DNA of 64,000 nt from a virus (lineage: Duplodnaviria > Caudoviricetes). This document shows, one piece after another, positions 1 through 62,368 of this stretch (within the stretch, counting starts at the first letter, position 1; each line of letters starts with the position of its first letter). Under the pieces are notes generated by a model, which was given only the letters and a program-made list of their open reading frames with translations, made no database searches and had not been told where the DNA came from. Both the position numbers and the translations under genes were made by a program. Location of the stretch: positions 52,724 to 116,723 of IMG/VR virus record IMGVR_UViG_3300033463_006083, one strand, 5' to 3'.

Positions 1-999
1 AAGAATTACAGGTCCTATTCAGCTATCATTTCCTCCAACTTTTCATTTTGATACATCTAATGACTGTAAATTATAACAACCTCAAAACATAGAAACATAA
101 TCTTGTACTTTATTCATATCTCAATTAGAAACATCTAAAGTTGTTAGATTTTGACAATAACCAAAAATATTATTTAAATTTTTTACATTACTTGTATTTC
201 AATTTGAAACATCTAAAGCTGTTAATGCTTGGCAACCATAAAATGCATAAGCTAAACTATTAAAATTAATAGTGTTTCATTTAGATACATCTAAAACTGT
301 AATTTTATTACAATTACTAAAAATACTAGATAAATATTGAAAATTACTAGTATCTCATTCAGATACATCTAATGCAGTTAAACTATTACAATTATTAAAT
401 AATTGATTTAAAGATTGTAATTTATTTGTATTTCAATTAGATACATCTAAAGCTGTTAAGTTTTTACACTCTTTAAAAGTTGCAAAAGCACTTGTCACAT
501 TATTTGTCTTTCAATTAGAAACATTTAAAGCTAATAAATTGGAGCATCCAGAAAATGTTTGTGCCATATCAATAACATTACTTGTATCTCAATTAGAAAC
601 ATCTAGTGTTGTTAAATTAGGACAAGTTGAAAAAGCTTGATTTAAACGTGTTATATTACTTGTATCTCAATTAGACACATCTAAGGTTGTTAAGTTTCTA
701 CAATTATGAAACATTCTAAAAACATCTGTTGCTTTATTTGTTATTCAATTTGATACATTTACACTTGTTAAATTAGAACAACTATATAGCATTTCACTAA
801 AATTTTGAATATTACTTAAATTTGGATTGACGAAATCTAATGATTCTAAAGGACACGTACCTGTACCTTGTCAAGGAAGAAATCTTGCAAGGTTAGATTC
901 ATTTAAAAAATTAACATTTAAAGTAATATTATGAATTGTTCGTACAGATGGATAAAATCCATAAGTACGTCCTGAAAAAGTAGCTCCTATATTAATCAT
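1..999 (-). CDS. DUF285/BspA-like leucine-rich repeat protein, copy 4 (runs off window edge; TGA=Trp)
   Basis: ATG at 999 after GAAGGAG RBS. Reads MINIGATFSG...; ~26-aa repeats LTTLDVSNW(D/N)TSN....F..C.N with W mostly encoded by TGA. Absent from ORF track. Confidence 0.85.
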
Positions 1000-1000
1000 A

Positions 1001-4000
1001 TTAATTTTCATCTCCTTCTTCAATAGTAATGTCTGTAAATTGTAATGTTGTATCTTTTATAAAATTAACTAAATCATTATAATTATTATAAGTTATTGTT
1101 GACGAACCTCCATTAGTATCAACATATGTTAAATTATAAATTGGAGGTGGATTATAAGTAACAACTAAATCAACATTTCCCACAGGCATTACTCCATTAC
1201 ACCAATAATTATTTCCTTGAATAGTTCAGTCAGTAATTGTTGGACTTTGAACATTATACTCTTGTTGATAATCATAAATACCAGAATATGCAGTTGCAAT
1301 TTCTGTTCCATTTTTATCACAATATTTAATATTTAATCTTCATTGTTCATTTTCAGTAGTTCAACCACTAGCTCTTAATTGATCTATTAAAGAAACTCCT
1401 ACTGTATTAGACATAATTTGTTTGCTAGATCCATAAAAAGGACTATATTGATTAGCATTCCTTAAATTTTTATAAGATACAGATACATTAGTAGCTGTTA
1501 AACACATATTACAAATATTTTTTAAAGAAGCTAGTGTTAAACTATTACAACCTCCAAACATTGCACTAAGATCTGTTGCATTAATAATATTCCAATTATT
1601 AACTAATGCAGATTGTAATTTTTGACAACCGTAGAAAGCATAACCTAAATTTATCATATTTTTAGTATCTCAACTTCCTACTGAGAAAGTTGTAACATTA
1701 TTACAACTGTAAAAAGCTCCATATATATTTTGCATTTTTCAAGTATTTCATGTACTTGTATTCATAGTTGTTAAATTTTGACAATTGTAAAAAAGATAAT
1801 TTAAATATACTACATTATTAGTTTTTCAATCATTAGGAACAATTTGAGTACTCTTTAATCTATAACATTGTAAAAAAGTTCCACTTAAATCTATAACATT
1901 TGAAGTATTTAAACCCTTGGTATTAATAGTAATTAAATTATAACAATGAGCAAAAGTTCAACATAAATTCGTTACATTACAAGTATTTCATGTATTAACA
2001 CTATTAAATATTGTAATATTAGTACAATAAGTAAATGTATCATACATACTTGTAACATTTGAAAGATTCCATCATTGAGTATCAATTCTTGTCGCAGCGC
2101 GGCAATTATAGAAAGCTTGATCTAAATTTTTCATATTTAAAGTATTTCATGTAGATCCATTAATTTCATTAAGTACTAAACAATTTTTAAATGTACAAAA
2201 CATAGTATTTATATTACTCATATTTCATAATAAAGTATTAATATTAACCAATTGTTTACAATTGAAAAAAGCTTGCGAAATATCAGTAACTTTATAAAGA
2301 TTTCAATTATTAGTGGTTAAATTTACAAATGCTTGACAATTATAAAAAATACGATTTAAATCTGTAGCATTTATAAGATTTCATTGTGAAACATCAATAG
2401 ATGGCATTTGATAACATTGTAAAAAAGCAGCTTGTAAATTTTGTACATTTTCTAAAGTTCATCTTCCAGTACTTAAGGCGGAAGTAAGACTTCATAAATG
2501 AGCAAAAGTTCAAGTTAAATTTGTTACTTTAGACATATCTCAAGTTCAAGTGTTTAATTTAGTCAATTTAGAACAATGATAAAATGTTTGTTCCATATTT
2601 TCCAATTCATCAAAATCTCATCCTGTTGTATTTAATGCAGATAAATTATTACAATTATAAAAACATTCTCCAATATGTTTAACTTTAGGAAATTTTCAAT
2701 GAGAAGTATTTAATGTTAATAAATTTTGACAATTATAAAAACCGGCATAAAAATTAGTACAAAATTCAGGATCCCAACTTGACGTATTTAAACTTGTAAT
2801 TTGATAAGCTTGGCAAAAAAGTCCTGCTAAATCAGAAACTCCTTTAATGTTTCATTGTGATGTATCAATTGATGTTGCTCCTCATAAATGAGCAAAAGCT
2901 CATTCTAAACAGTAGGCATTGCTAAAGTTTCAATTATACACATTTAAACTTGATAAACTGTTACATTTATAAAAAATACCATAAAAATTTTGTCCATGAT
3001 AAACATTTCAATTAGCAACATTTAAACTTGATAATAATTGACAACCTCAAAATACATCAGCAAAATTTGTAACATTTGAAGTGTCTCAAGTTGATAAATT
3101 TAATGTTGTAAGATTATAACAATTATTAAACATAGAAGCCATATTTGTCAAATAAGAACTTGATTTTCATTTTGCAATATTTAAAGAAGTTAAATTTCGA
3201 CATTCATCAAAAGCAAAATCTATATTTTTTACATTTGCTATATTTCATTGAGATAAATTTAAAGTTTTTAAATTATATGAGCCTCTAAAGGTAGAATTTA
3301 ATTGTTCTACATTTGCAGTATTTCAATTAAATAGATTTAATCCTGTTAAATTATAACAATAAGCAAATGTATTTGTCATATTTTTAACCTTAGAAACATC
3401 TCAATTAATAAGATTTAAACTTGGACATGATATAATTCCATAAAATGTACCCCTTAAACTTTTTACATTACTTGTATCTCAATTAGATACATCTAAATTA
3501 GGCAATGCATAACAACCATCAAATAAATATGCAAAACTTTCAACATTAGAAACATTTCAATTAGATACATTTAATTCAGCTAATTTAAAACAATTAAAGA
3601 AACAAGAATATAAATTTGTTACATTTGATGTATTTCAATTAGAAGTATCTCCTATAGTTGTAAGATTAGTACAATTATCAAAACTACTTATTAAAGAAGT
3701 AACATTATTAATTTTTCAATTTGAAAGATTTAAACTTGTTAATTTACGACAATTTTCAAAAGCATTTGCCATAGAAAGCACGTTTATAGTATTTCAATCA
3801 GAAATATCTAAATATTGTAAATTTTGACAATTAGCAAATAGCATTTTTAAACTTGCAACATTATTTGTTTTTCAATTACCTATATTATTAACATATTGTA
3901 AATTATGACATTCATTAAAAAGCATTTGTAAGTTTTGAGAATTATCAAAATTTCAATTATCTATATTAAAAACAGTTGGCATATGACAACCATCAAACAC

Positions 4001-5101
4001 TGAACCAAAATTAGTAACATTGTTAGTATGCCAATTATCCACTTTAAAATCTATTAAATTATAACAACCATCAAAAATACTACTTAAATTAGATACTTTA
4101 TCAATATTTCAGTTAGATACATCTAAATGCACTAAATTACGACAATTTCAAAACATATGAGAAAGACTTTCTACATTTGTAGTATCTCAATTAATAAGAT
4201 TTATATTTCTTAAATTATAGCATGCGCTAAAAGTCTTGTTCATATTTGTAACATTACTTGTATTTCAAGTAGAAACATCTACATCGGTTAATTTACTACA
4301 TTGTTCAAAAGTTCCTGTTAAATCTTTAACATTATTTATATCTCAACTAGCAAGATTAAATTCTATTATATTAGAACAAGCTCCAAATGTTTCTGCCATA
4401 TCTGTAACATTAGAAACATTCCAATTTGATACATCTAAATTCTTTATATTTCAACATTCTGCAAATAAACCATGTAAACTTTTTACATTATTAACAATTC
4501 AATTTGAAACATCTAATGTTTTTACTTTTCGACATCCATAAAAAGTATTTGCTAAATTTTGTAAATTATTTAATTGTCAATTTGAAAGATTTAATTCTCT
4601 TAAATTATAACATCCTTTAAAGGTATTTGATAAATTATTAATTTTACTAACATTTCAATTAGATACATTTAAATGCTGTAAATTTTGACAATTATAAAAA
4701 GCATCTTCTAGATTTGTTAAATTACTAGTATTTCAATTTGAAACATCTAAAAATCTTAATAAAGAATCATTTCAAAAAAGATTACTAATACTTGTAATAT
4801 TACTCATATTCATTTGAGAAAATCCGCCAAGAGTTTTTAGAGATGTAAAATTTGCAAAAGAATAGTTTATATTAACAATATTATTTAAAGAATTTTGACT
4901 ATCCCCCAATAACATAAGCTCGGTATTTATAGGAGCCCCTTCTTGTTGATTAATATCATCTGTAAAAATATCTAAACGATTATTTAAAGATTTAGATCAA
5001 TCTAAATCTAATATTAGATTTTTACAATTTGGAATAGTAGAATTCATACTATTAAGTGATGATAAAAATAAATTTTTATAATTAAAAGGTGTTGCACTCA
5101 T
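1001..5101 (-). CDS. Large DUF285/BspA-like LRR protein (~1366 aa) with C-cap and extra C-terminal domains (TGA=Trp)
   Basis: ATG 5101 with AAAGGAGG RBS; TAA at 1001. Track ORFs 1001..1189 and 1361..1657 share the frame, as do spot-checked TGA codons at 4733, 3167, 2459 and 1748. Roughly 40 repeats of ~78 nt. Confidence 0.85.
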
Positions 5102-5192
5102 TACAATTACCTCCTTTTTCATTTTTTATCTATAAATATATGATTTTTCTATTAAAATAATAAATTACTTTAGACCAAAATAAAAAAGAGAG

Positions 5193-6338
5193 CTATTTAC
5201 TCTCTTCTTCATCAATAGTATAAACATACCCTTCTTTACCAAGAACTCCAGATTTTTCATCAAGCTCTTTAACCCAATCAGGAAGTCTATCTCTTATTTC
5301 ATCAAATTCTTCTTTTCCTCTGTAATCTTCAGTTTTTATTTTTTCTAAAAATTGAAAGAAAGTAATTTGAGGAATAATACCAATCATATCTTGAGAATGT
5401 CCTGCATATTGCATTGTATACATACTTTTTAAAATATTCTCATCAATTTGATCTTCAATTTGTTTATAACAAGAGTGATAAAATCTTTTAGCATTAAATA
5501 AATTTTCTTCTGCAAACATAGGTTTTTGCTCTAAACATTGAACATATGTAAAATATTGACCTATCATCATTTCAACAGTAAACTTCATAATACTACCATT
5601 AAAAGGGTTTTTCTTTTTACAAAATTTAATTGCATTAATAGACGCGGCAGTTGCTCCTACTTGACATAAATCTCAATTATAAAGTGGAGTACCATTATTC
5701 TCTTCAATACCAATTCGAGTGATAGAATGTTCAGAGCCTTTTCGCCATAAATAAACTATTTTTTCAACAAAATTAATTTTTACTGGGAAACCTTCAATAG
5801 AAAGACGGACTTTCCAATTTAATTCCCCATCCTCCATAGCTCTTAATTTTGAAAATCTAATATCATTTGATTTTAAAAATTGTAAATTATATAATCTTCC
5901 AAATACTCAAGGATGTCCTTCATCCATTCTTGGCATCATACGAACTTTCATAGGATTTGGATCAACTTCTTGACAAAATATCCCTCTTACTTCAATACAA
6001 TCAGGTGTAATTCCATCTCTTAAGTTTTCAAGAGACATTGGATCATAAAATACATCATCTGCATCTATCCAAGTTATTCATTCAGTTTTTGCGGCGTCCG
6101 CACATCTTTGACGTGCTAATCCAGGTCCTGTATTTACTTCGCAATCTAAAATTGTAATATCTAAATCAGGAAATCTTTCTTTAACAAAATCATAGCTATC
6201 ACCTGGATTATCATTTGCAATTATTATCGCAACATCATTTTTAATAGATTGAATTTGAATAGAAGAAAGACAATCACAAATATGAGGTTGTGCTTTAAAA
6301 GCTGGTATTCCTACCGTTATTAATTTTTTATTTGACAT
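5193..6338 (-). CDS. Family 2 glycosyltransferase (GT-A fold), ~381 aa (TGA=Trp)
   Basis: Track ORFs 6078..6338 and 5193..5588 are in one frame. N-terminal ITVGIPAFK, N.GPGLARQ, then EWITWIDADD (DxD motif) once TGA is read as Trp. Confidence 0.85.
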
Positions 6339-6393: not shown

Positions 6394-6419
6394 AAAAAAG
6401 AGTAGTTTTTACTACTCTT
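6394..6419 (-). terminator. Intrinsic terminator after LRR gene 6418..9492
   Basis: AAGAGTAG/CTACTCTT stem followed by a T-run on the minus strand. Confidence 0.65.
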
Positions 6420-9400
6420 AATTTGTTTTTCATCCTGCTGCAGTTAATTGTGTTATTAAATCTTGTCCTACTGTTGTAACATTAATTTGTTTATTTGTTG
6501 TATAAAGTGGACTTCTAATGTTCGTATTCATTAAATTTTTATAAGTAGTAGTCATATTTGTTAAATTTAAAGCAAATTTTGCAATACTCACCAAACTATC
6601 AGTAGTTAAATTATTACATAAGCCGAAAGCGTTATTTCAAGTTATTAAAGATGGTAAAGATGCATTTGAAATATCTAAATTTACTAAATTAATACATCCT
6701 CTAAAAGTGTTATATCAATTTGCCATGTTTGGTAAATTTCAATTACATATATTAACATCTGTTAAATTTTCACAACCTGTAAAACAAAAAGGCATTGAAG
6801 TTGCATTTAAAAATGTTAAATCAGGAATATTAATATCTTTTAAATTGAAACAAAGACCATAGCTGTCATATAAAGAAGTAACAGTATCTAAATTTCAATT
6901 TAATAAAAAATTAAGATTTGTAATATTAGAATTAAAAAAAGTATATGCTAATCATCACACATTATTAGTTTTTCAACTGTCTAAAAAATAAAAATTAAGA
7001 TTTCAACAATTTCTAAAACTATTAGAAAGATCCATAACAGAAATAGTATTTAATGTTTCTGCTCCATATAAATTTTTTAAATTAAAACAATTAGAACAAA
7101 AATCAGTTAAGTTAGTATAGGTAGATGAAAAATTCATATTATCAATATTAACATTAACTAATGATTGTGCATTATTTAATAAAGGTAAAGCATTTATACT
7201 ACTATAATTATTTCAAGATCAATTTGACATATCTAAATCCGTAAGATTAGTTAATCCATCAAAAAACCTATTTCCATCTCAACTAAAACTATTTGAAACA
7301 TTTCAATTTGCAATATTTAATCTTTGTAAGTTAGTGCAGTAACTGAATATATTTCCATTATTAGCGAAATCAGTAATATTACAAAAATTTAAATCTTGTA
7401 AATTTACCTCTACTAAATTCGTACAATTCCTAAACATAGCACTAATATTAATTGCTTTTTGAAAATTTCAATAATTTTTTAAATTATCAATTGAAATTAA
7501 ACTATTACATCCAGAAAAAGTAAATACAAAAGAAAGAACATTACCAGTATCTCAATTAGCAAGAGGATCAAGATTTTTAAAATATATAGTATCTGTAAAA
7601 GTTTGTAATAAAGTATGTACATTAGAAGTATCTCAATTAAGAATATCATCAAAATTAAAATTTTTACAATTTTGAAACATACCTCCTAAAGTAATTGGTA
7701 TTCAATTTTTAATACCTTTTACAGTGTTTAAATTATTACAACCATGAAATAAAAAATTACACTTATTAGCAACCTGTTGAAAGTTTAATGTTTCAAGATT
7801 CAATTCAGTTATATTTTGACAACCATCAAACATTCACTCTATACTAACTGCATTACTTCAATTTCAATTAGATAAATCCAAGACAGAAAGATTATTATCA
7901 TAATAAAACATATATGAAAAATCTTGTACCTTATTAACTTTTCAGTTAGATACATCAATTGTTTTTAAACTGTTACATCAATAAAGAAACCTATGTAAAT
8001 TAATTGCATTATTAAAATTTCAAGTAGATAAATTTAAGGTAGTTAAATTTGTACAAGTACTAAACATCTGTGCGAAATTTTCTCCCGAAGAAACATCTCA
8101 ATCATTAACATTTAAACTATGAATATAATTATCTCCATAAAAAGTAGATGAAAAATTATTAACTTTTGACACGTCTCAATTATTAATATAAATATAATCT
8201 GCTCATATTCTTGAAAGACTTGAAGATAATTTTGTTAAATTACAAGTATTCCAATCATCAATATTTAAAGTAATTAAACGTTGTAAATTATTAAAAACCC
8301 CTTGAGGAATATATGTTAAATTGCACACATTTCAATTTGGAATCTGTAAATTAGTTACATATTGACATTCTTTAAAAACATTATTCATAGAAGTCATTGG
8401 ACTGAAATCTCAATTAGGCATACTAATTTTACTAATAATAGCATTATACCATAAATTATCTATATTTTTTATATTAACAGCAGTTCAATTTTCTATGTTA
8501 AATCTCAAAATATTATCCATATTTAAATTACTAAAAAAATTATAAAGACTAACACCATCTAATACTCAATTATTTGCATACAATCTTTTCATATTATTAT
8601 GTATTAATCTTCCTATAGAAGAATTTGTAATATGCCAATTTTCTGCGTAAATTATATTAGGATATGATCCACTCATAGAAGTATTTATAATGGTTCAATT
8701 ATTCATGTCAAATCGTACATTATTACCAGATCCAACTAAACTTGTAACATATGCATTGTTAAATACTCAATTTGATAAATTAATATTTGAATTTGTTAAT
8801 CAACAAAAAACACTAGCAGCATAATTAAGATTGTTTGTATTTCATTTTGAAAGATCTAAATTTCAATTATTTCATGGACAAAAAGGGGTGTATAAATTTT
8901 TAAGATTACTAACATCTCAATTAGAAATATCTGGTGGCTGTAAATTATGACAATAATTAAAAGTATAATACATATTTGTTAAATTGCAAGTATTTCAATT
9001 TGAAACATCTAACATTGTTAAATTATTACATCTAGTAAAAGTACCTTGTAAATGTGAAATATTACTAGTATCTCAGTTGGATACATCTAAAGTTGTTAAA
9101 TTATTACAATAAGAAAAAGTATATCATAAATTTTCTAAATTGCTAGTATTTCAATTTGAAACATTTAATGTTGTTAAATTTACACAACCCGAAAAAGTGC
9201 TCTTCAAATTTTTAATATTACTAATATCTCAATTAGCAACATCTATTTCATTTAAAAAATAACAAGTGTTAAAAGTTTGATCAAGATGTTCTATTTTAGA
9301 AAAATTATTCAAAATAATTTTTTTAGTATTAGCTCCATATGGACCAATATAAGAATTTTCTTCTTTCGGAATTAAGAAAAAATCATTCATAGATAAATCT

Positions 9401-9492
9401 TGAGCTTTTTCTCAGTTTAAATCTAAAAATCAATTATTACAATTATCTAAATAATTTTCTATTAAAATATTTTTATAATTATATTTTTTCAT
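6418..9492 (-). CDS. DUF285/BspA-like LRR protein (~1024 aa; TGA=Trp)
   Basis: ATG 9492 after GGAGGTG; TAA at 6418; length divisible by 3. Starts MKKYNYKNIL..NCNNWFLDLNWEK, has NW-containing repeats, ends ..QDLITQLTAAGWKTN. Absent from ORF track. Confidence 0.8.
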
Positions 9493-9511: not shown

Positions 9512-11749
9512 TTATTCTGTAAAACTAATTTTAAATTGAAATTTATTTGTTGTAGAAGTTGAATTATTATAAATTCTATATTTAATTTCAATAAAATGTT
9601 CTTCATCATCTAAATCTGTATAAACGACTTTTTGTACTGCGGTAGATGAAGCTGTTCCAGAAAAACTTTTTTTAACATTTGTACTTTGTTCAGAACTATA
9701 ATAATTTCGTACTAAAGTCTTATCAACATTAGATAAAATTCCAAAATTATTAGTAGAAGAAGTGGTTTGATTAATACAACTAACAACTAATTTTCCTGTA
9801 TTTGTTTTAAATTTTACTTTACAAAGAGCATAACTATAAGATTTTCCAGTATTACCACTTGTATAATATCCAGTATTTGAATTTAACGTAAAATCATAAG
9901 GCGCATAATACAAACCAGTTTTATCAATAGGCTCAACAACATACTCTCCATCTATATAAGGAACAGATGTAATTTCAACATTTTGAGAAACTGTATTTTG
10001 TTCATCATCTTCTAAAGTAATATTTATTACTTCATTTCCCTCTCCAATACCTGAAAATTCAATAGAAATACAAGCATTGGTTTTATCTAAAGTAGAATTA
10101 ACTGTATAAATAGAAGTTTCTTCAGGAGACACACTTATAGAAAAATTATTAGGATGATCATCAACTTCAAAACCTCCATATAAAATATTTAATGTTTTAG
10201 TTCTTGTATTCATAATAGTATAATTATTAATAATTTCTCATGTTAAATTTTGACATACTCTAATATTTGTTAAATCATTACGACTATTTAAAAACATCTT
10301 TTTCGTAAGAACATTAGAAACATATATATTACAATTATTCATAAGCCCTTCAAAAGCATACTTACATTTTAATCAATTGGTAGAATATATCGTATCAAAC
10401 TGACAATTATTTAAATAAAGATTTTGTAAATTATTACAAAAACTAAAAGCATATCATAAATCAGCAACATTTTGAACATTTCAATTAGATAAATTTAATT
10501 CAGTCAAATTATCACAATAACGAAAAGCTCCATATAAATCAATTAAATTATTTGTTTGTCAATTAGAAACATTTAACTCAGTTAAATGATTACAACCAGC
10601 AAAAGTCCAACTTAAATTTGTTAAATTACAAGTATTTCAATTTGAAACGTCTAAATTTGATAAATTATTACATCAATAAAACATATATGCAATATTATTT
10701 AATCTAGATGTATTTCAATTTGAAACATCTAAAGTTGATAAATTATAACAGGAAAGAAAAGTATCTACCGCAGATTGTAATTTACTAGTATTTCAATTTG
10801 AAACATCCAAATCTCTTAAATTCTCACAATAGTAAAAAGCATAATTTAAATCAATTAAATTATTTGTTTGTCAATTAGAAACATTTAAAGTTGTTAAATT
10901 ATTACAATAATAAAAAGTTCCATCTATTAATCTTAAATTACAAGTATTTCAATTAGAAACATCTAAATTTGTTAAACCACTACAAGAAGCAAAAGTATTA
11001 TATAAAACTTTACAATTAGAAATATTCCAATTAGATACATTTAAATTTGTAAAGCTTTGACAACCTTCAAATGTTCGATTTATACTTTTTAAATTACTAG
11101 TATCTCAATTTGAAACGTCTAAATCTGCTAATACTCAACATCATAAAAAAGTATTATTCATATACTTTATGTTACTAATATTCCAATTAGAAACATCTAA
11201 ATTTGTTAAATTAGAACAACTATGAAAAACACTATTAAACATTTGTGTGCTTTGTAAATTTCAATTTGATATATTTAAATCTGTTATATTATAGCAATAC
11301 ATAAAAACATTATCTCAATTTTTAATTTTACTTACATTTCAATTTGAAATATCTACATTTCTAAAATTATTACAACCATAAAAAATTCCATTAAGATTAT
11401 GTATATTTTGTAAATTTCAATTGCAAAGATTTATATTATTTACCATATAGCAATTAGCAAACATATAATCTAAATTTGTAACATTTTTCATATCTCAATC
11501 TTGAAATTCAATATTATCTAACTGATAACAATAATAAAAAGCACGAGATAAAGAAGTATTTTTAGGAAAACCACTCTGAACATTAATATTTAAATTTGTA
11601 AGACCTGACATACCATTAAACATGAACTCTAATCCAGTAGAATGTTTTCAATTTAAATTTAAAATAATATTAGGACAATTTCAATCAAATAATGCATGCT
11701 GATATGTATACCTAGCATCCATTAATAAATTATTATATTCATATAGCAT
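9512..11749 (-). CDS. DUF285/BspA-like LRR protein with a beta-rich C-terminal domain (~745 aa; TGA=Trp)
   Basis: ATG 11749 after GGAGG. In frame with track ORF 9512..10213 through TGA at 10238. About 15 regular LDVSNW repeats. Confidence 0.82.
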
Positions 11750-11756
11750 ATTTTTC

Positions 11757-37304: not shown

Positions 37305-45641
<8,337 letters not shown>

Positions 45642-45747
45642 ATCCTTTTGCCTCCTTTTACTTTCTTCCAAATAAAAAAATTCCTCTTTATCTATTATGA
45701 TAAAAAGGAATGATTTATTAACCTAAAATACCCATGCAAAAATATTA

Positions 45748-51953: not shown

Positions 51954-51971
51954 ATTACACCTCCTTGCCAT

Positions 51972-52532
51972 CTACTTTGTAATTATAATAGGCTTAGCTT
52001 TACGACCAGTTTCTGTAGTTTTTGTTGTAACTGGTGTTGCTCTTCTCTTAGAAGTTGTTTCCTCTACAGGTTCATCTTCTAAAGCAGCCTTTTTCATTTC
52101 AACAGCTTTATCAACATTAAAATTTGTCTTTTTTAAAATTTCATCTCTCATAGCAACATTATTAACAGGTAATTCAACAGCTTCTTCTTTTACTAAATCA
52201 ATAACACCTTTTGGCGCAAAATCTAAAGTATCTTGCAGTTGTTCTAAAGTACCTTCTGTTAATAAAGTTCTAACGGTATCTTTTGTATAATAATACTCTG
52301 GTTCAACATTTCCTAAAAGCTCTTCTGCGGCTTCTTTATCTTGAATAATTAAATAATCTTTTAATAAATTTAACCCACCTTTTACCCAAGCAAGTTTTTC
52401 TAACTCTTCAAAAGTGATTGTTTTAGTTTCTCCGCCAGAAAAAGTTCTATGTAAGTTTAAATCAGGAATTGTATAACCTACAGTACCATTATCTCTATTA
52501 GTTAATTTTATTTCACGATTTTTCTCAACCAT
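51972..52532 (-). CDS. Hypothetical protein downstream of the major capsid gene
   Basis: Intact ORF with RBS and an upstream TTGAAA-17-TATAAT (52565..52593). Confidence 0.7.
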   Translation of the reverse strand: MVEKNREIKLTNRDNGTVGYTIPDLNLHRTFSGGETKTITFEELEKLAWVKGGLNLLKDYLIIQDKEAAEELLGNVEPEYYYTKDTVRTLLTEGTLEQLQDTLDFAPKGVIDLVKEEAVELPVNNVAMRDEILKKTNFNVDKAVEMKKAALEDEPVEETTSKRRATPVTTKTTETGRKAKPIIITK

Positions 52533-52684
52533 AATATTAACTCCTCCTTTTATCTCCTAATTTAATTATATCAAATTTTTTAAATTTTTTCAACTATAAA
52601 AAAACTGGAGGAAGATTAATTATAATTAATCTTCAATAGCCTAATTATAATATTTCTTCCTCCAAAGTTTAATTATCTAAAAAA

Positions 52685-53728
52685 TTAGATTGATGCTTCA
52701 CTATCTAAAGAAGTGTTCTTATATACACAAATATCGTTAGTTACTAATGTAGCAACACCGAATTTTTTGTAAACTCTGATTTCTTTAGACCAATCATGAT
52801 TGTCTACTTCTTTAACAGCAGTAGGTCCTTCGAATGCGATCTTAACTGGTTTTTCATTTGCTCCAGTAGGAATAATCCAAGCATATGCAGGATTGATAAC
52901 TTTAGTTGTGTTAGTTTCATCTTCATAAGATTGTTCTAATACAATAACATTATGTCCTTTATAGTTAGCTAAATAACCATTATTCCATCTTTCATCTTTC
53001 ATTCCATTAGATCTCCATCCAGCTTCTGGAACCATAGTTGCAGCAAATTCATATGTACAGTAAATAGTTGATTTTCCTCCGTATGCATCTGCAATTGAAA
53101 CTAATCTATCCATTTCAGCTTCAACGAAATCATTTTGAGTTGTTTTATTTCCATCTTGTAGACTTTCAACTGTAGCAATTAATGCTTTTGCGATTTCTCT
53201 ATAAACAGCTTCATCTAATCCTTCCATAACGATTTCAAGTAAATCAGCAAAATCTACTCTTCCATCTAAGAATTCTTCGAAACCGATTTGAGCAGCTCCA
53301 CCATAAGCTTCAGTTTGAACTTCTAATACTCTTCCATCTAATTTGAATACTTCGTATACTCCAGCTAATCCAACTCTTGTAACGAATCTTTTTGCTCTTC
53401 TTCTAGCAGCAGTAGTGATTTTTTGAACGAAAATTGGTTTGTCACCTTGAGCAAAAGTTTTTACTTCAGCGAACATTCCATATTGTTCTAATACTTTTTT
53501 AGGTAATACATCACTAATTGTTTGTTCGATTAATTCGAAAATAGTATTTTTATTTTCTCTATATAAAGCGTAACTTCCAGCTAATTCATTTAATTCATTT
53601 CTTAAAGTTTCATTTAATGCTGAATAGCTTAAATTTGTATCTCCAAATGAATACGCTACTTTTGAAGAAGGGTCTGCGTTAGCAACTGCTTTTGCTAATT
53701 TAATTAATTCACTTTTAACTAATGCCAT
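52685..53728 (-). CDS. Major capsid protein
   Basis: 347 aa, follows the protease/scaffold and decoration genes. Codon usage is biased (TTC, AAC, ATC, GCT) as for a highly expressed gene; terminator downstream. Confidence 0.8.
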   Translation of the reverse strand: MALVKSELIKLAKAVANADPSSKVAYSFGDTNLSYSALNETLRNELNELAGSYALYRENKNTIFELIEQTISDVLPKKVLEQYGMFAEVKTFAQGDKPIFVQKITTAARRRAKRFVTRVGLAGVYEVFKLDGRVLEVQTEAYGGAAQIGFEEFLDGRVDFADLLEIVMEGLDEAVYREIAKALIATVESLQDGNKTTQNDFVEAEMDRLVSIADAYGGKSTIYCTYEFAATMVPEAGWRSNGMKDERWNNGYLANYKGHNVIVLEQSYEDETNTTKVINPAYAWIIPTGANEKPVKIAFEGPTAVKEVDNHDWSKEIRVYKKFGVATLVTNDICVYKNTSLDSEASI

Positions 53729-53745
53729 AATTCTCTATCCTCCTC

Positions 53746-54258
53746 TTACGCGATTCTTTGAATCTTAACAGCTTCTTGACCATCTGCCATTGTATAAACT
53801 TTTACAACTTTGAATTGAATATCGCTGTCTCCGCCTTTCTTTAAATATCCTGTGTTACTGTCGATTTTTAATACGTTACCAACTTCTAGGTCTTCCATTT
53901 CTGTAATTCCTTTATTAGAAGTAGCAGCAGCATATAAACAGTTAGTAGTATAGATATCTCCTACATTTGTTTTGAATACTCTTGGGTAAATAGCTCCGTC
54001 AGAACTATCAGAAGCTTTAAGAGCAAAATCTTTGTAAGTTTCTCTATAACCATCGTATAATTTAACTTCGTTGAATACTAACATCCATTCTCCAGCACCT
54101 GTTAAATTTACTTCTCCAGTTGCATAGTCATATTTAACGAATTGTCCATTTTCTAATGTTGTTAAATCTGCATTTGCAGGTAATTGAGCGTAAATTTGTC
54201 CAGTTCTTTGAGCTGATAAATGATTAGGTTCAACTTGTCCGTAACCTATTCTTTCCAT
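53746..54258 (-). CDS. Probable capsid decoration/minor head protein
   Basis: 170 aa between scaffold and MCP; VEPNHLSAQRTGQIYAQLP. Confidence 0.65.
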   Translation of the reverse strand: MERIGYGQVEPNHLSAQRTGQIYAQLPANADLTTLENGQFVKYDYATGEVNLTGAGEWMLVFNEVKLYDGYRETYKDFALKASDSSDGAIYPRVFKTNVGDIYTTNCLYAAATSNKGITEMEDLEVGNVLKIDSNTGYLKKGGDSDIQFKVVKVYTMADGQEAVKIQRIA

Positions 54259-54274: not shown

Positions 54275-55696
54275 TTAATTTTTGCTATTTTGAGTATTTA
54301 TGCAAGCAGAAATCCATGCAGGAATTTCACTACCTTCATTATTATCAATATTGAAAGTAGCAACTGCAGAGTTTTCTTCTTCTACTTTATTATTATTTTC
54401 GTCTAAATTCTCTTTTTCAAAATTAACCTTATTTTTTACACAAATTACACATAATTTTGATTCGATTTCTTCTAGACTATACTCTGACATATGTTCTTTT
54501 ACATCTTTTTTATCTTCATCAGATAACATATAGAAACTATCAATTAAATTTTGTTTCTTTTCCATTTCAACATTCTTTTTGAATTCTACTAATTCATCAT
54601 ATTTTGCTTTTAATTCTTCATATTCTTCTAAAGAATATTCTTTCTTTTTAGTTTCTACATCATCAGAATTATCTAAAGGTTCTTTGTCTTCAGATTCTTC
54701 TTCTTCATTTTCAGATGTTTCTTCTTCATTTTCAGAATAATCAGAAGGAGCATCTCCCTCAGCTTCTTCTTCAGTTTCAGATTCTTCTTCTTCTGAATTT
54801 TCCTCTTCGCTTTCAGTTGTTTCTTCTTCTTCCTCTTTTTCTTCAGACTCAGGTTCAGTTTCAACTTCAGCTTCTGTAGAAGTAGTTTCTGTTTCAATAG
54901 AACTTTCAGTTTCTTCAGCTTCAACTGTTTCAGCTTCAGTATTTTCAACTTCTTCTTCAACAGCTTCAGTAGTTTTAACTTCTTCTTCCATGTTTTTTCC
55001 TCCTTCTAATGCATATTTTAAATCTTGCATCATAGTATATAATGTTTGTTTAAAACTATCATCCACTTTACTGAATGAATTGCTTACTTGAGGGGCAGTA
55101 ATACTAGCACCTTCAAAACAAGGTTCAACATCTTCTCCTAGAATACATAATTTAGAAAATATCGCATCGTTAATTATAAAAAAGTCCATACCATTATTAA
55201 CATTAGTTGACCAATGTCCATCTAAAGAACTTTCATCAAGTTCCATAGACTGATTATTTCCTTTTTCAATAACTCTTTTTGCTTCTTCATATTGACCAGT
55301 CCATAGATAACCAGTAGTCATTAAATATTTTCTTGTTATTTTATTGCCAAAATCATCAGTATCTTCAAAATCTTGAAACCATACTTTTGCATCTGGTGCA
55401 ACAAAACCATAAGGCTTTGTTAAACAATTAAATTTAACTCCCTCATCATCTAAAATAACTTGTTCTCCATGATCTGCAAAATCTTCTTTATCTTCTTTGT
55501 AGTATCCAACAATAGGAGCTCCTCTTAAAGTCTTTGCCATATCTTTGGCAACGTCTTCGCTTATATAACTATGATTTCTATTCTCTCCAACATATAAAAC
55601 CTTAATCTCACATTTAGACATTAAAGGATTAATATCTAAAGGTTGAAGATTAATAAATTCAGGAGAGCTAATTGTTGCTATTGATTGGTGCATCAT
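54275..55696 (-). CDS. Prohead protease/scaffold
   Basis: N-terminal GENRN.SYI, G.PIVG, QSMEL, LCILG..VEPCF; long Glu-rich scaffold-like C-terminal half. Confidence 0.78.
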   Translation of the reverse strand: MMHQSIATISSPEFINLQPLDINPLMSKCEIKVLYVGENRNHSYISEDVAKDMAKTLRGAPIVGYYKEDKEDFADHGEQVILDDEGVKFNCLTKPYGFVAPDAKVWFQDFEDTDDFGNKITRKYLMTTGYLWTGQYEEAKRVIEKGNNQSMELDESSLDGHWSTNVNNGMDFFIINDAIFSKLCILGEDVEPCFEGASITAPQVSNSFSKVDDSFKQTLYTMMQDLKYALEGGKNMEEEVKTTEAVEEEVENTEAETVEAEETESSIETETTSTEAEVETEPESEEKEEEEETTESEEENSEEEESETEEEAEGDAPSDYSENEEETSENEEEESEDKEPLDNSDDVETKKKEYSLEEYEELKAKYDELVEFKKNVEMEKKQNLIDSFYMLSDEDKKDVKEHMSEYSLEEIESKLCVICVKNKVNFEKENLDENNNKVEEENSAVATFNIDNNEGSEIPAWISACINTQNSKN

Positions 55697-55775: not shown

Positions 55776-57401
55776 CTAACTTTGAGATTCCTTATTTTGT
55801 ATAGTTTTTTCAGTCACTTCTTCACCTTTAGATTCATTTGTAGGTCTTCCAGCTTCCCCTTCTTCAGAAGAAACCTTTCCGCCTCTTTCTTGTCTATTTT
55901 TCTCATTAACTCTATTTAATACATCAGAGTTCATTGTACTAGACATCATAGGTGGAATAAATACATTAACTAAGTCTAAAATATCATTTTCAAAGTATGC
56001 ATTTGCTAAAATAGAACTTTGAGTTTGACCAAGAGCAATTTGAGGTAACATTTTACTGAAACCAACTTGCATTTGTTCTTTATATAACTTAGCCATTTCT
56101 TTATAATTATAAATAGTTGTTGTTAAAAGTTGAACTCTATAAACAACTTTTTTATTTTTTCTATTAAACTTTTGAATAATTTCATTTAAAAAATCTTCAA
56201 ATTGAACAAGTAAATTATACATAGAAGCTTCATCATTTAAAATTGATTTTTCAAGAGCAATATTACCATCAGTATTAAATTGCATTTGAGAAATACCAGC
56301 TTCATTAAATACTGTTCTTTCTACTTTTCCTAAATCATCAACAGTAGTTGTAGTATTTCTATCTGCCATATCCGCAACATCAACATCTGCAAAAGTAGTT
56401 AATACATCAATTCCAATTGCTTTTGATAACATATTAACTGCATTATTATGAAGTTGTTGAGCTTCATCTACATCAAATACTAAATCACCATTTTTATCAA
56501 CTGGCATCTTTTGAATTATTATTTTTAATAATTTTTGAGCCATTTTTCTTCTATCTAAATCTTGTGCGGCATCTAAGTCAATAATAGCAGGAATTACCGC
56601 AATCATAATAGGAAAATCTTCTCCATTAATATTAAATTTAATTGTTTTAGTTACATCTAATAAATATCAACCATTTTGATCTCCAAAAAAGTCTGGTTGT
56701 AATTTACCTTCTTTAAATAATCTATAGCCTTGTCTAAATTCTTTTGGAAATAAATTTAATACTTTCATTCTTTGAGTTGTATCTTTAAATACATCATCAA
56801 AATATTTCATATTAAATTCAACCGCAGGTCTATTATTTACTTTATATCTAGATCTACAATATTTTACAGGTAGCTCTTGAATTTGAAGTTTTTCGCCTTC
56901 TTCAATAAGATATCCATAATAACATCCATTTTTAACAACTTTTAAAGCCATTTCTCCAAATAATCTTTTTACTTGAAAATCTTCTAAATAATTTAATACC
57001 TTATAGAAATTTGTTAATGCTAATTCCTCAGTTCTTTGTTTTTCATCATTTACATATGGAGTTACCATCCAATCATATCTATACATATAAGCTAAATATC
57101 TACATAATCTATTATAAATACCACTAGTTCTATAAAAGAAATTAGATACTTCTCTCATAAAAGGAACATTATTTTCAGCGATAGCTCGTAAAACTGTCTC
57201 TTTGTCTGCTAATCTTTTATCTATTCTGTGTAAAGAGCCTAAAGTTAATACTGCATCTTCTAAAGTTTTTACACCAACTTTTATTTTAGAAAAGTCAACA
57301 GGTCTATATTCATCAGAAATCCCCATCTCTGACATATCAGGACGCATAGAAAAACCTTTAGATTTTATTTCTTGCATTCTATTACTTATCATTTTAGACA
57401 C
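55776..57401 (-). CDS. Portal protein (~541 aa; one TGA=Trp)
   Basis: Track ORFs 56667..57401 and 55776..56606 join through TGA 56667 (..NGWYLLD). C-terminal EAGRP; lies between terminase and protease. Confidence 0.8.
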
Positions 57402-57877: not shown

Positions 57878-59632
57878 CTATTTGTTTGTAAAAAACATCA
57901 TTTCCGCAATATTTCTTTTCTTCTTTCTTTTATTTCTATCTTCTTCTTGTTTAATATAATATAAACCATATTCAAATGCGGAAAACTTATCTTTTGGAAT
58001 TCCTCTACTAGATTGTTTTAAGATAATATTTGCACCTTCATTTTCTTCAACTAAATTTAACATTTGTTCTCTTAAAATAGTTGTAAGAGTAAAAGGCTGC
58101 AAGTATTCTTGCCTTTGTGCGGAATCCATATTTTGACCTATTTTAGTAGATAATAATTTTACTTTTGCTTGATTTTCATCTATTAAAAATTTAATTTTTC
58201 CGCTACCTAATTGCATTTGAACATAAGTATGAGCTTCGGTATTTATTGGTAAATTAGCTTTAATTAAATACATTGCTCCTTCTTCAACCCCTAGACCTTT
58301 TATATTTTTATAAGACTCAACAACATCATCTGTTGTTCCTCCAGCAACTCCAAATGCAGGAAGTTCTTCTCCTGTTTCTGGATCAACTTGTGCTTTTGTC
58401 ATAAAATCAACAAATCCAACACCAAGTCCATTAGCATCGATTGCCGCAATTTTAGCTTTATATTTATAAAATAACTTTTTAATATTAATAGCTTGAGTTT
58501 CAAAATCTTCAGCTTCATAACTATATAAATTAACTAAAGTTTTTAATGCAGCTCCTTGAGGTTGTGGTGTCACTTTAAACACACAAACTTCAGTTGTGCA
58601 TTTTAAACGACCAACATCGACTCCAAGTACATAATAAGCATTTTTACTACTTCTACCGCTATGTTCATACTCGGGCTGTAATAAAACTCTATATTTATCA
58701 AATCTTTCTGCAGAGAAGAAAGCGTTTTCCGCATCTCCACTCCACTCAGACTCATATTCTCTTGAAAATGAACTATCATTATAAGTTCCATCTAATTTTA
58801 AATTTGTAATAAAATTTCGAGGTTGTAATCCTTCAAGAACTGGAACTCTTCAAGTTCCGCCTAAAACTATTGCTTCTCCAGGTTCAATAATTTCTTGAAT
58901 TAAAATTTGAATTAATTTTTCATAAGCAAAACCATTTTTCCAACCAGCTGTAGTAACATAAATTTGAGATTTATTTGCAACCTCCTCTTCATGTCTTGAA
59001 CCATCTGAAAGACGTCTATCAACAACCATTGTTGGAATGATAACTTCATTTAATAATGTTTTGTCAATTAAGATACACTCTTCCATTAAACCACCAGTTG
59101 CACGTTTACCACGAGAACTTTGTTGAGCAGCCATAATATCAAAAACACTACCATTTTTAAATTTATAAGTTACTTCATTTTTACTAGATTTAGTTTGACC
59201 TCTTGTTCAGTCAATTTCATTTTTTAAACCAGGAATTAAACTACATAATTCTTCTACTTTTTCTCTTGTAATTCCAGCAGCTTGTTCCTTACCGCCAGTT
59301 GTAACAAAGAAGTGTGAACCAGGATAAAGAATACATTTTATCATAGAACCTAAAACCGCTAAAAATGATTTAGAATAACCACGAGGGAAAGTCGCATAGG
59401 AATATCTATGACGCATAATTGCTCTTAAAAATATTCTTTGATATAAATACAAATGAAAGTTTTCAGGATTACTTCCGCATAAAAATTCAACAAAAATATC
59501 TGGATAAGCACGTCAAAAAGCAACGTATTGTCTTAATACTGGAATTTGTGCTTTAATTCTTTCTTCAGAAATCCCAACCTTTTTAGAAAAGGTCTTAGAT
59601 TCTGATAATTTCATTAAATCCGCCAATGCCAT
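57878..59632 (-). CDS. terL: Terminase large subunit (~584 aa; TGA=Trp)
   Basis: Track ORFs 57878, 58850 and 59207 share the frame; ATG 59632. FWRAYPD (TGA), Walker A-like FPRGYSKSF, Walker B-like GLMEE, YVTTAG, FSREYESEW, LGVDVGR, IDANGLG, KDKFSA. Confidence 0.9.
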
Positions 59633-60834
59633 TATTGATCACCGTCGCTTATCATTTCCGCATCAAGTTCTTTTTGTCTTTCAACTTCATCAAGATACTC
59701 AACATAATCTTCATCTTGTAATTCATAATCTTCATTTTCCGCAGCTTCATTCATCTCTTTTTGAATTTGAATTTTCTTTAAAGCATCTTCAATTTGTTGA
59801 CCAAAACCTAAATCTTGAGTAACCAATTTATGTAAATAATTATTCATATCTTTTAATGTAGCATCAACTTTATCTTGTGGAACATCTGTAACATATTTAG
59901 GGATAAAACCTTCTCTTTCACACATAGATATAATTTCACCAACACTATCAACAAAATCATTTTTCTCGTCTTTATTTTGAGCTGCTGTAAATTTTGCAGA
60001 CTTTCTTAAAGAATCATAAACTTTTGATAATTTTTGATAACCATCTAAATCACCAATATCTAAAGCTTGGTTCATCTTTAAATTTGTTTTACAAATAAAT
60101 AATAATGTATTAATTGTATCTGCATCTTGAATATCAAATGAACGAGTCATCTCATTATACATTTTTTCTAATTGAACCCATTCATTAGGTTTATATAATC
60201 TTCCTCATTTCATAGCAAGGAATATTTTATCATCTTGAGTTAATTCAGCTCCTGGGTCTCCAAGTTCTTCTTCAGACATAAAATCATCTTCATTGAAACC
60301 TACAGAACCTGGATTTTGGCCAGTTTGTCCAATTGCGGGCTCTGGTGCATCCGCATGTCGGGTTGCAACTGTAAGCATAGTCTTATATTCAGCTTCAGAA
60401 ATTTCACCTTTATCAAACCTTTCTTTGGCCTCTTGCTCTCTTTCTCGAGCCTCTTCCTCTGACTTAGCAGCTGCCGCCGCATATTGTTCTTGTAGCATCT
60501 CAGTATCATCTCAACCATATTGACGCCATTGTTTTAATTTCATTTTAGATAAATATCTACCAAAAACAGAACCACTTTTTAATTTTGTCGGGTCTTTTTC
60601 ATAAATTCTATCTCTTAAAGTATTTCATTCCGCAGGAATGTATGGAACATCCATCTTTTTTAATAATCAAGTATAAGTTTTTTCATCAAAATTATCAATG
60701 TGCATAGTCAAACACTCTTTACACATTTCTGTTTTAGTACCATCTTTATAAGTGAAAAAACTATTTTCACCCATTCATTTTCTACACTTTTCACAAAAAA
60801 ACTTATCTTTTTCTTCTGTTATGATTGCCGCCAT
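59632..60834 (-). CDS. Zn-finger protein upstream of TerL, putative terminase small subunit (~400 aa; TGA=Trp)
   Basis: ATG 60834; CEKC...CKEC; in frame with track ORFs 60205 and 59632; TAATG-coupled to terL. Confidence 0.65.
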
Positions 60835-60836
60835 TA

Positions 60837-61925
60837 TTACTCACCTGCTTCCTCTTTAGCTTTCCTATTTCTACATTCTTTACAAATAGAATAAAAACCA
60901 TCTTTTGAAGTTTTATTCTTTGAGAAATAAAGATTGTGAGCTAATTTAACTTGACCACATCTAGAGCATCTTTTCCACTTGCCCTTTTCAACCATTGTAT
61001 AATATCACTCAAGGTAATTTTTAACAGCTCTTTCCGCAATCAATTTAGGTATCTTATTACGCCATAATGAACTAATATATTCAACAGAATGTTTAATACC
61101 GTATTTTAATTCAAGTAGGAATTGGATTTCCGCATTACTCCTACCATCTATTTTATAAATTAACAAGTCGTAATATAATGGATAATCATCTTCAAGCGCA
61201 TCATCTATTAAATTATCCAAATCTAACATCATGTAATAACAATCACTTTCAAACCTACCTCAGCATTCTTGCTTTAACGCAGAATAGTTGCACAATAGTA
61301 TTGAAATATGTTTAGGATTAAAAAATGAACAAATACAATCACTAACTGGCATTCCGCTTTCATTAATTGTGATGTGCTCATCAAATCTAGTGTAAACAAA
61401 AGACTTAACCGCATTAGATGCAAACACTGGTTGTCTAACCATATTTTTAATTGTGTATTGCTCTTGATACATTTCAATTAGCATCTTTTTTAATTTATAT
61501 TTATTTTTACCTGTAGCTTTTTTCTCTTGTCTCTTAACACTTTCAATCGAGTCCTTAAGATCTGCTAAAGCAGGGATCTCCGCAACATCCTTAGGAGTAA
61601 TTGATACTTTAGGAGTTAATAAAACATTTTTATCATTTTCTATTGTTATATTATAAAGACCGTCTTCACCATTTTCAAATTTACTTACTAAACCTTGATA
61701 TGAAGTTTCTCTCTTATTTATCGTTATTAATCTATTATCAGTCATTATTTCTTTTTTCTTTTTTTCATCTTTATCCATTGCCATTATTATATAATTACTT
61801 AATATCTCAATGTATTTTTCAGTTAATTGATTAGGAGAAGCATTTCTAACAATTTCTTCAACAAGCTTTTTTCTTTCCGCAGGATCTTTTAAGCTATAAT
61901 CTAGTTTCTTTAAATCCATTAGCAC
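60837..61925 (-). CDS. HTH plus C-terminal Zn-finger protein, putative transcription regulator (~362 aa; TGA=Trp)
   Basis: Track ORFs 61260 and 61005 join. GRSNAEIQ..L...HSVEYISSLW (HTH-like), then WKRCSRCGQVK...FSKN..SKDG..SICKEC; TAA 60837. Confidence 0.7.
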
Positions 61926-61971: not shown

Positions 61972-62000
61972 ATTCTAATTCAAAATTTTTCTTTTGTCAA
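61972..62000 (-). promoter_or_regulatory. SigA-type promoter for the regulator/terminase operon
   Basis: TTGACA-17-TAGAAT. Confidence 0.65.
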
Positions 62001-62019
62001 CCTTGGTTTTTACATCTTT

Positions 62020-62048
62020 TTGACAATTATAAAAAAATATTATATAAT
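62020..62048 (+). promoter_or_regulatory. Consensus SigA promoter, divergent
   Basis: TTGACA-17-TATAAT. Confidence 0.8.
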
Positions 62049-62095
62049 ATTATTAGAAAAAGAGAAAAGAAAAAAATAAAAACAAGAGGTGTATA

Positions 62096-62368
62096 ATGAA
62101 AGTAAAGTTATACCTAACGTGATTAAAAATAAAATTATTCTGGACAAGAGTAAAGAAGTATGCGTGAGTTGCGGCGGCTGTCGCCTTACTTGTGGCGGTC
62201 ATGTGGTTAATATTTGCACGACCTGGTGCTTCCGCATACTATTATATAGATTGAAATGATAATCACGGAGTTGCAACTGATTGTTGAGTTGAGAAAAGTG
62301 GGTTGTATTGCACAAAGCAGTATGGCGGCACTGTTGCGGTTAAGCAATTCTGTGAAGTTAATGAGTAG
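62096..62368 (+). CDS. Small membrane-anchored or secreted protein (90 aa, four TGA=Trp)
   Basis: GAGGTG RBS. MKVKLYLTWLKIKLFWTRVKKYAWVAAAVALLVAVMWLIFARPGASAYYYIDWNDNHGVATDCWVEKSGLYC..; TAG. Absent from ORF track. Confidence 0.72.

Follow-up and report, generated by a model that had tools for sequence, protein, structure and literature searches.

A large tailed phage in which UGA is read as tryptophan in the late arm and which probably imposes this reading on a walled standard-code host

A stretch of 64,000 nucleotides, called the window here, was analyzed; it comprises bases 52724-116723, the last 64 kb, of the 116,723-bp virus record IMGVR_UViG_3300033463_006083. The window very probably represents the late half of a large virulent tailed phage of Gram-positive bacteria, in which UGA (TGA in the DNA) is decoded as tryptophan (Trp) and a tRNA with the anticodon UCA, tRNA(UCA), supplied by the phage, imposes this suppression on a walled host with the standard code. 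The whole record had a G+C content of 29.3%, zero N and a CheckV completeness of about 78%, and no terminal repeat was found on the contig. Based on Pfam and PHROGs assignment, the genes in window positions 1-62315 were nearly all encoded on the minus strand and formed a late arm of virion, fibre, leucine-rich repeat (LRR) and lysis genes. The remainder of the contig was a plus-strand replication arm with gyrB, gyrA, NAD-dependent ligase, RNase H, DnaB, RecJ-like, UvrD-like, PolIII alpha, and NrdD with its activase, and an array of 17 tRNAs was located at contig 138-5454. Positions are those of the window unless the contig is named.

Reading of TGA in the late arm

Coding density was determined as greedy non-overlapping coverage by open reading frames (ORFs) of at least 100 amino acids (aa). 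The coverage of the window was 0.503 under translation table 11 and rose to 0.930 with TGA as a sense codon, compared with 0.539 for TAG and 0.675 for TAA as sense; the corresponding values for the whole contig were 0.575, 0.888, 0.599 and 0.715. The gain thus came from TGA, and TAG as sense added almost nothing. The longest table-11 ORF in the window was 473 aa, and ORFs of 2791, 1471, 1373, 1166, 1158 and 1024 aa were obtained with TGA as sense. The same gain was found in 18 of 51 related loci, and no case that required TGA as a stop was found. At least one in-frame TGA was present in 27 of the 39 minus-strand genes of at least 80 aa that overlap the window, with totals of 251 TGA and 88 TGG. 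At the exact Ser-Asn-Trp sites of four genes of the DUF285 family, the Trp codon was TGA in 34 cases and TGG in 3. The terminal stops of 108 ORFs called with table 4 were 79 TAA and 29 TAG. A preliminary description of this DNA had proposed that ORF fragments fuse in frame across TGA, and this was borne out by the coverage and by ORFs of up to 2791 aa. Its statement that all genes stop at TAA or TAG is true, but by construction under table 4, and its statement that TGA and TGG alternate at the Ser-Asn-Trp sites was right in that both codons occur and too strong in the word "alternate". Table 11 makes half of the window look non-coding and shreds the largest proteins, so that standard pipelines would mis-annotate this phage and its many relatives, and table 4 is needed for the late arm.

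The called genes were translated with TGA as X and aligned to six-frame translations of 50 IMG/VR terminase relatives and five GenBank records, and the codon opposite each X was read, which gave 800 cells at 51 TGA positions. TGG (410 cells) or TGA (160 cells) stood opposite TGA in 570 of the 800 cells, followed by Tyr (77), and the rest were scattered. The majority residue was W at 21 of the 51 positions and TGA at one, and 16 of the remaining 29 positions belonged to the poorly aligned tape-measure protein. TGG occupied 224 of 352 cells in relatives without a coding-density gain and 39 of 69 cells in TAG-recoded relatives; TGA (123) and TGG (110) together occupied 233 of 272 cells in TGA-recoded relatives, and the GenBank standard-code phages had W in 11, F in 9 and Y in 7 of 63 cells. 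Compared with Enterococcus phage H1 alone, which has the standard code and a cultured host, the 45 aligned positions showed W at 12, F at 6 and Y at 6, and zero G, S or C. The phage's own TGG codons, taken as a control, behaved similarly, with 367/486 cells in the no-gain, 325/372 in the TGA-recoded and 46/76 in the TAG-recoded relatives.

The same was seen in single genes on the minus strand. Opposite TGA codons 40, 142 and 261 of the large terminase (TerL, 57878-59632), TGG or TGA was present in 110 of 158 cells, and the rest were mostly Tyr or Phe with no Gly. For the single TGA (codon 245) of the portal protein (55776-57401), TGG or TGA was present in 45 of 46 relatives, and for the five TGAs of the phrog_3314 protein (59632-60834) in 196 of 242 cells. 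In the CW_7 repeat, the Trp that matched the solved Cpl-7 structure is encoded by TGG and is uninformative on TGA. Since TGG or TGA faced TGA in the relatives, TGA corresponds to Trp and not to Gly. The aligned sequences thus agree with the earlier proposal of Trp, and of the contrary evidence named there, Gly was absent from TerL, and TGG or TGA prevailed in TerL and the portal protein, the tape-measure protein being uninformative.

The distribution of TGA was compared between the two arms for genes of at least 80 aa, 35 on the plus strand (replication or early arm) and 42 on the minus strand (late arm). The replication arm contained 10 TGA and 101 TGG and the late arm 272 TGA and 92 TGG (Fisher p = 7e-37); after removal of the four DUF285 genes, the late arm still contained 131 TGA and 79 TGG. 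PolIII alpha had 19 TGG and 0 TGA. For the codon pairs of Lys, Glu, Gln and Leu, the fraction ending in A ranged over 0.83-0.92 in the early arm compared with 0.86-0.94 in the late arm, and because these fractions were alike, the TGA bias between the arms is not explained by composition. TGA-free genes also occurred in the late arm (12 of 39), including the capsid-region genes 52685-53728 and 54275-55696, the virion protein gene 47675-48610, the M23 lysin and the holin candidate. The wording that TGA is read as Trp "across the genome" was thus not upheld. Among the probable high-copy virion genes, 52685-53728, 54275-55696, 47675-48610 and 28171-29550 were all TGA-free, and in the large low-copy LRR and fibre genes TGA made up as much as about 92% of the Trp codons.

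The suppressor tRNA and its second arm

No tRNA was found in the window. By ARAGORN and Rfam, a tRNA(UCA) of 96 nt was detected at contig 1856-1951, 50.8 kb before the window and within the 17-tRNA array (Rfam tRNA 60.6 bits), with a tRNA-Trp(CCA) close by at contig 1657-1730. The two tRNAs have in common the AGGG acceptor start, the discriminator G73 and the D loop, and their anticodon stem-loops are a single base apart (C34 to U). The tRNA(UCA) starts its acceptor with A1-U72 and has a 7-bp acceptor and a 5-bp T stem. G73, A1-U72 and the anticodon are identity elements of bacterial tryptophanyl-tRNA synthetase (TrpRS). Judged from these shared features, tRNA(UCA) is tRNA-Trp-like and was probably derived from tRNA-Trp.

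In six-frame translations of the whole contig (about 78% complete), no RF-1 domain of release factors and no class-Ib aminoacyl-tRNA synthetase domain, as expected of TrpRS, was found. The preliminary description had seen neither a tRNA-Trp(UCA) nor a release-factor gene in the window, which was confirmed, and of the genes that it suggested seeking elsewhere on the contig, the tRNA was found and TrpRS and a release factor were not. The gene trpS was absent from all 34 relatives with the same tRNA type, 11 of which were at least 90% complete. Of 27 relatives, 25 lacked a release-factor domain, among them the five TerL-clade records of that set (one complete and terminally redundant) and the four TerL relatives that carry the two-armed tRNA described below. 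The tRNA is thus the sole recognisable code-change part in the clade. In two phage records with the two-armed tRNA, G489 and G492 (parents of L074 and L078), an RF-1 domain of about 100 bits was detected in an encoded protein of 344 aa, which may be a phage release factor like those reported for Jade phages.

The variable region of tRNA(UCA), 26 nt in length, folds to a 5-bp hairpin with the loop CUCCAAA, which is identical to the anticodon loop of the phage's own tRNA-Trp(CCA). No suppressor tRNA was found in the TerL-centred loci, and the parent records were searched next: BLAST of the tRNA in ten parent records revealed full-length or near-full-length copies in four, all with the same loop. 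A pattern scan of the viral collection, with the D arm and the UCA anticodon loop as sole requirements, gave 55 loci with 56 sites including this contig. The variable region was an ordinary 5-6-nt loop at 20 sites and a 26-29-nt hairpin at 32, and it was unparsed at four, three of them with the same loop motif. The loops of the 32 hairpins were CUCCAAA in 19, GUCCAAA in 11, GUCCAUA in one and CUUCCAAAA in one. In an alignment of 31 distinct long tRNAs, 96.7% of cells paired in the cloverleaf-plus-arm structure, compared with 37-48% in slid controls. The stem of the extra arm, 5-6 bp, was covarying, with two-sided changes at five of six pairs (18, 16 and 8 sequences at three core pairs), and its loop read U-CCA-AA, in which the letters U, C, C, A and the final A were invariant.

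Since the extra arm lies at the position of a type-II variable arm, the UCA arm is presumably the true anticodon arm, as judged from the linker pattern. As its likeliest function, though with considerable doubt, the extra hairpin is tentatively suggested to be a handle on which the host TrpRS would meet the CCA identity element, with the UCA arm left to read UGA on the ribosome. If this were true, Trp identity and decoding would reside on two separate arms of one tRNA, and through the handle a single RNA gene would suffice for a phage to change the code. Phages with a plain short-loop tRNA(UCA) were expected to carry trpS more frequently than those with the two-armed type; the gene was found in 0 of 20 and in 0 of 34, respectively, with only two short-loop records near complete, and the contrast is uninformative.

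A tRNA with the amber anticodon CUA was also detected (contig 138-214, minus strand). TAG recoding was considered and rejected, for a long in-frame continuation followed only 1 of 27 TAG-ended genes of at least 80 aa and the density gain was almost nil. The hits of a first scan for TAG-spanning alignments were an artefact, most of them lying in frames of closely related DNA that do not code. TAG is a stop in this phage. No orthologue of the tRNA(CUA) was found in five relatives, where the nearest matches were their tRNA-Arg(UCU) and tRNA-Lys(UUU).

Further structured RNAs were observed in the tRNA regions. A strong partial match to OLE RNA (RF01071) lay in the array at contig 5077-5348 on the minus strand (locus L001), with 100.1 bits against a gathering score of 50 over model positions 281-595 of 616. 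In the tRNA regions of 6 of 15 relatives (L073, L083, L085, L086, L090 and L093), OLE-like matches likewise exceeded the gathering score. To our knowledge, OLE RNA is known from anaerobic or extremophile Bacillota and not from phages. The tRNA regions of relatives also contained a full-length ROOL RNA (151.7 bits) and phage-borne genes of transfer-messenger RNA, at L086 3625-4261, L080 5530-5937, L085 987-1411 and L086 6634-7007.

Late genes, host and alternative explanations

The lysis cassette lies on the minus strand. By position, it contains a lysin in which a wall-binding CW_7 repeat is combined with an NlpC/P60-like domain of weak support (30126-30980; TGA codons 30 and 280, 8 TGG), an M23 peptidase of the endolysin type (31090-31908; 0 TGA, 4 TGG) and a candidate holin of 111 aa with a hydrophobic segment and an acidic tail (31895-32230; 0 TGA, 2 TGG). 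The preliminary description had listed M23 and NlpC/P60-Cpl-7 lysins and a holin. The M23 domain (99.7 bits, cut-off 28.7) and CW_7 (78.9 bits, with a match to the Cpl-7 module of PDB 5i8l, E 3e-22) were solid. The NlpC/P60 call was weak (18 bits, under the cut-off of 23; Spr/MepS E about 0.5), and the holin candidate is only an ORF with a hydrophobic segment, for which no family match was found, PHROG families included. The full product of the CW_7 lysin is impossible without UGA suppression. Preferential recoding of the lysis genes was not seen, and in their neighbourhood only the 1471-aa tail protein upstream of the cassette (32776-37191, minus strand) was TGA-rich, with 11 TGA and 3 TGG. 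The absence of TGA from the genes of the most abundant virion proteins and from two of the three lysis genes suggests that suppression has a cost or is incomplete, rather than acting simply as a timer of lysis.

The M23 and CW_7 lysins imply that the host has peptidoglycan. TerL clustered with those of Enterococcus phage H1, Geobacillus virus E3 and phAss-1, and those TerL relatives whose hosts are known are phages of Enterococcus, Geobacillus, Alicyclobacillus, Brevibacillus and Bacillus. In a pattern scan of one genome per species, the two-armed tRNA was found once, in a metagenome-assembled genome (MAG) named 'Bacilli bacterium', on a 41.7-kb contig (JAEDHQ010000011.1) that also carries TGA-containing ORFs. 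This MAG encodes prfB (483 bits, cut-off 370) and prfA, and its GTDB order, with 106 genomes of 0.7-2.5 Mb, was taken as the candidate host order. Four further genomes of the order hold long stretches related to the phage head module, the module being syntenic in G016, G046 and G053 (25-61% amino-acid identity) and G023 having one virion-protein gene (44%). In the order, prfB was over its cut-off in 97 of 106 genomes, at least eight of which have the single in-frame TGA of the prfB frameshift site, and a penicillin-binding protein (PBP) transpeptidase was present in 67 of 106, to which all five genomes with phage-like DNA belong. It was also observed that 39 of 106 genomes showed no PBP transpeptidase and that almost all have prfB, which may reflect either incomplete bins or an order with both walled and wall-less bacteria. 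Short matches of 28-31 nt with 94-96% identity in the 106 genomes were followed as a lead to clustered regularly interspaced short palindromic repeat (CRISPR) spacers, and the lead was dropped because no repeat arrays were present in the fetched regions; one of the matched sites is an intergenic, promoter-like stretch of the phage. Host prediction by spacer match, as earlier suggested, thus yielded no spacers, and the walled, Bacillota-like host proposed at the same time was supported by the lysins, by the hosts of the TerL relatives and by the PBP genes. Judged from this indirect evidence, the host is most likely a walled, low-GC, standard-code member of the class Bacilli.

The preliminary description had left it open whether the phage imposes UGA suppression or the host is itself a code-4 lineage. 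Given the phage's own tRNA(UCA), the TGA-poor replication arm and a candidate host order that keeps prfB, the gene of release factor 2 (RF2), the phage most likely imposes UGA suppression. The decoder would be the tRNA-Trp-derived tRNA(UCA). As neither TrpRS nor a release factor was detected among the genes of the contig, host TrpRS would have to charge this tRNA, which would have to compete with host RF2. The replication genes, nearly TGA-free, could be translated in a naive cell, and most late genes would not be completed until the suppressor tRNA is active.

Several points weigh against this explanation. The expression timing, the tRNA charging and the RF2 competition are themselves inferred steps. 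TGA occurred in 8 of 35 early-arm genes, with three in RNase H at internal positions, so that either some suppression must act before or outside the late phase or these genes are not early. The TGA-free M23 lysin and holin candidate misfit the published idea that recoding holds back lysis genes. Trp stood opposite TGA in 0 of 34 cells of the tape-measure protein, against 6 of 20 for TGG, in alignments to only three distant records (20-32% identity) that are uninformative on the code rather than contrary. The missing 22% or so of the genome could hold a code-change gene. No direct host link by spacer or prophage was found, the link to the order was made through binning, and a class-wide control with a different query, the TerL protein, matched only 2 of 400 scored genomes, both at 29% identity.

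The strongest alternative is that the host itself uses table 4, as a member of the Mycoplasmatales or of an undescribed walled code-4 lineage, and that the phage merely matches it. The DUF285 family is named after Mycoplasma, the phage genome has 29% G+C, walled code-4 bacteria exist in two Eggerthellaceae genera (gTranslate preprint), and 39 of 106 genomes of the candidate order lack a detectable PBP. We consider this unlikely, for a table-4 host gives no reason why the replication arm should avoid TGA (10 against 101 TGG) when other A-ending codons are not avoided. Moreover, capsid-type genes avoid TGA too, the phage carries its own tRNA(UCA) and encodes peptidoglycan hydrolases, close relatives are TAG-recoded or without a density gain under either recoding, and prfB was over its cut-off in 97 of 106 genomes of the candidate order, at least eight of which have the frameshift-site TGA in frame.

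That TGA specifies another residue, such as Gly (table 25), Ser through the long variable arm, selenocysteine or Cys, is very improbable. ARAGORN labels the tRNA(UCA) as a selenocysteine tRNA under the bacterial code, and its long extra arm and G73 could be taken in favour of Ser, as both also occur in tRNA-Ser. Against this, the cells opposite TGA in TerL, the portal protein, the phrog_3314 protein, the sigma-factor-like protein and gene 50071-51033, the five informative genes, contained 0 Gly, 0 Cys and 2 Ser among 692, and the usual 7-bp acceptor, 5-bp T stem and tRNA-Trp body do not fit a selenocysteine tRNA. For other phage pairs of tRNA(UCA) and TrpRS, Trp at UGA was reported by mass spectrometry (bioRxiv 10.1101/2025.10.30.685624). 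That the TGAs are real stops, in decayed or fragmented genes, a faulty assembly or with only occasional read-through, has nothing in its favour beyond the table-11 reading itself and is hardly credible given 319 in-frame TGAs in frames open for up to 2791 codons, TGG at the same positions in relatives and the density gain repeated in 18 related loci. Phage-imposed suppression of UGA was thus retained as the explanation.

The other assigned genes of the window were also on the minus strand. The four DUF285/LRR proteins comprise one of 673 aa, of which the N-terminal part lies at 1-1023 (gene at contig 51725-53746; 25 TGA, 1 TGG), one of 1373 aa at 1001-5122 (Pfam DUF285 506.5 bits; 51 TGA, 6 TGG), one of 1024 aa at 6418-9492 (44 TGA, 3 TGG) and one of 754 aa at 9512-11776 (21 TGA, 3 TGG), with a family-2 glycosyltransferase at 5193-6338 (3 TGA, 4 TGG). 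At higher positions lie a fibre-like protein of 1166 aa (15183-18683; 8 TGA, 4 TGG), a Listeria-Bacteroides-repeat (Flg_new) protein of 1158 aa (18810-22286; 29 TGA, 5 TGG) and a second fibre-like protein of 958 aa (25258-28134; 3 TGA, 4 TGG). The tape-measure protein of 2791 aa (37296-45671; 18 TGA, 8 TGG) was assigned by PHROG tape-measure families, and the capsid-region protein at 52685-53728 (0 TGA, 4 TGG) by phrog_4088. The sigma-factor-like protein (60837-61925; phrog_5767, E 6.6e-51; 2 TGA) has a Cys-rich, zinc-ribbon-like C-terminus and adjoins the terminase genes, and may drive late transcription. Long poly-Asn runs were observed inside the tape-measure protein (about 24 N) and inside 11757-12617 (8 N), the protein heading the LRR locus. 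At 51972-51974, the TAG stop of gene 51972-52532 abuts the in-frame next gene 51354-51971 with zero spacer; this codon is a stop in 8 relatives (6 TAA, 2 TAG) and sense in 14 relatives, where one fused protein is formed, and the junction may be a split gene or a read-through site. The ten long relatives that were searched measured 105-165 kb, nine of them 105-136 kb, and one (131.6 kb) has terminal repeats.

Comparison with known systems

Phage-imposed TGA recoding is already in print from gut metagenomes, and the two-armed tRNA, which lies outside the window, is the most interesting part of the present phage. In the literature passages searched, to which supplementary tRNA tables may add, no description of such a tRNA was found. 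The closest published counterpart in behaviour is the 'Agate' lineage of Borges et al. (bioRxiv 10.1101/2021.08.26.457843), virulent TGA-recoded phages of about 127 kb in a clade with a mean of 154 +/- 27 kb; the present contig measures 116.7 kb at 78% completeness. According to the text of that preprint, TGA aligns with Trp in terminases, suppressor tRNAs occur in 35% of code-4 genomes, phage TrpRS and RF1 are rare and confined to Jade phages, single clades mix tables 11, 15 and 4, and in-frame TGA is found in structural and lysis modules, with the standard code kept in replication genes. By this published description, the present phage resembles the Agate phages in being virulent, in reading TGA as Trp with a suppressor tRNA and without TrpRS, and in combining recoded structural genes with standard-code replication genes. 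In both, strong recoding is seen in the tail protein that lies upstream of the lysis cassette (11 TGA and 3 TGG here), and the mixture of tables 11, 15 and 4 in one clade is paralleled by TAG-recoded and no-gain relatives within the terminase clade. Differently from the Agate phages, TGA is absent in this phage from the M23 lysin and from the candidate membrane protein of the lysis cassette, and the two-armed tRNA architecture is not in the text of the published description.

PhAss-1 (proposed Phassvirus, OQ749652; PMC10607447) is similar in TerL (42.6% identical over 93% of the query) and, according to its publication, in its large size, its suppressor tRNAs and its recoding of a stop codon; Enterococcus phage EF1 is assigned by that paper to the same wider group. 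However, phAss-1 reads TAG as Gln (NCBI 'code 15 clade'), its density rises from 0.51 to 0.94 with TAG as sense, its G+C content is 39%, and its predicted host belongs to the Clostridia. Jade phages also read TGA as Trp through a phage tRNA(UCA), and the Trp at UGA reported by mass spectrometry was that of the AP1 and HF2 tRNA(UCA)/TrpRS pairs (bioRxiv 10.1101/2025.10.30.685624). As described, Jade phages possess a 'code-change module' with their own TrpRS and RF1, both of which are lacking on this contig, and the 11 near-complete relatives with the same tRNA type as this phage have no trpS.

Table-4 bacteria, namely Mycoplasmatales and reduced endosymbionts, share with this phage the reading of UGA as Trp by tRNA-Trp(UCA) and an AT-rich genome. 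According to the gTranslate preprint, known table-4 prokaryotes are recognised by the presence of tRNA-Trp(UCA) and the lack of prfB, and the candidate host order, in which prfB is present, shows the opposite pattern. These bacteria lack prfB and use TGA in all gene classes, whereas the replication arm of this phage is poor in TGA, and the phage encodes a tRNA of its own as well as peptidoglycan hydrolases. If the proposed explanation holds, the phage would be a clean case for the published model of a phage-imposed code change in a walled standard-code host. It would also qualify that model, in that TGA is avoided by the most abundant virion proteins as well as by two of the three lysis genes, and in that the code change has a single recognisable component, a tRNA whose second arm is unusual and conserved.

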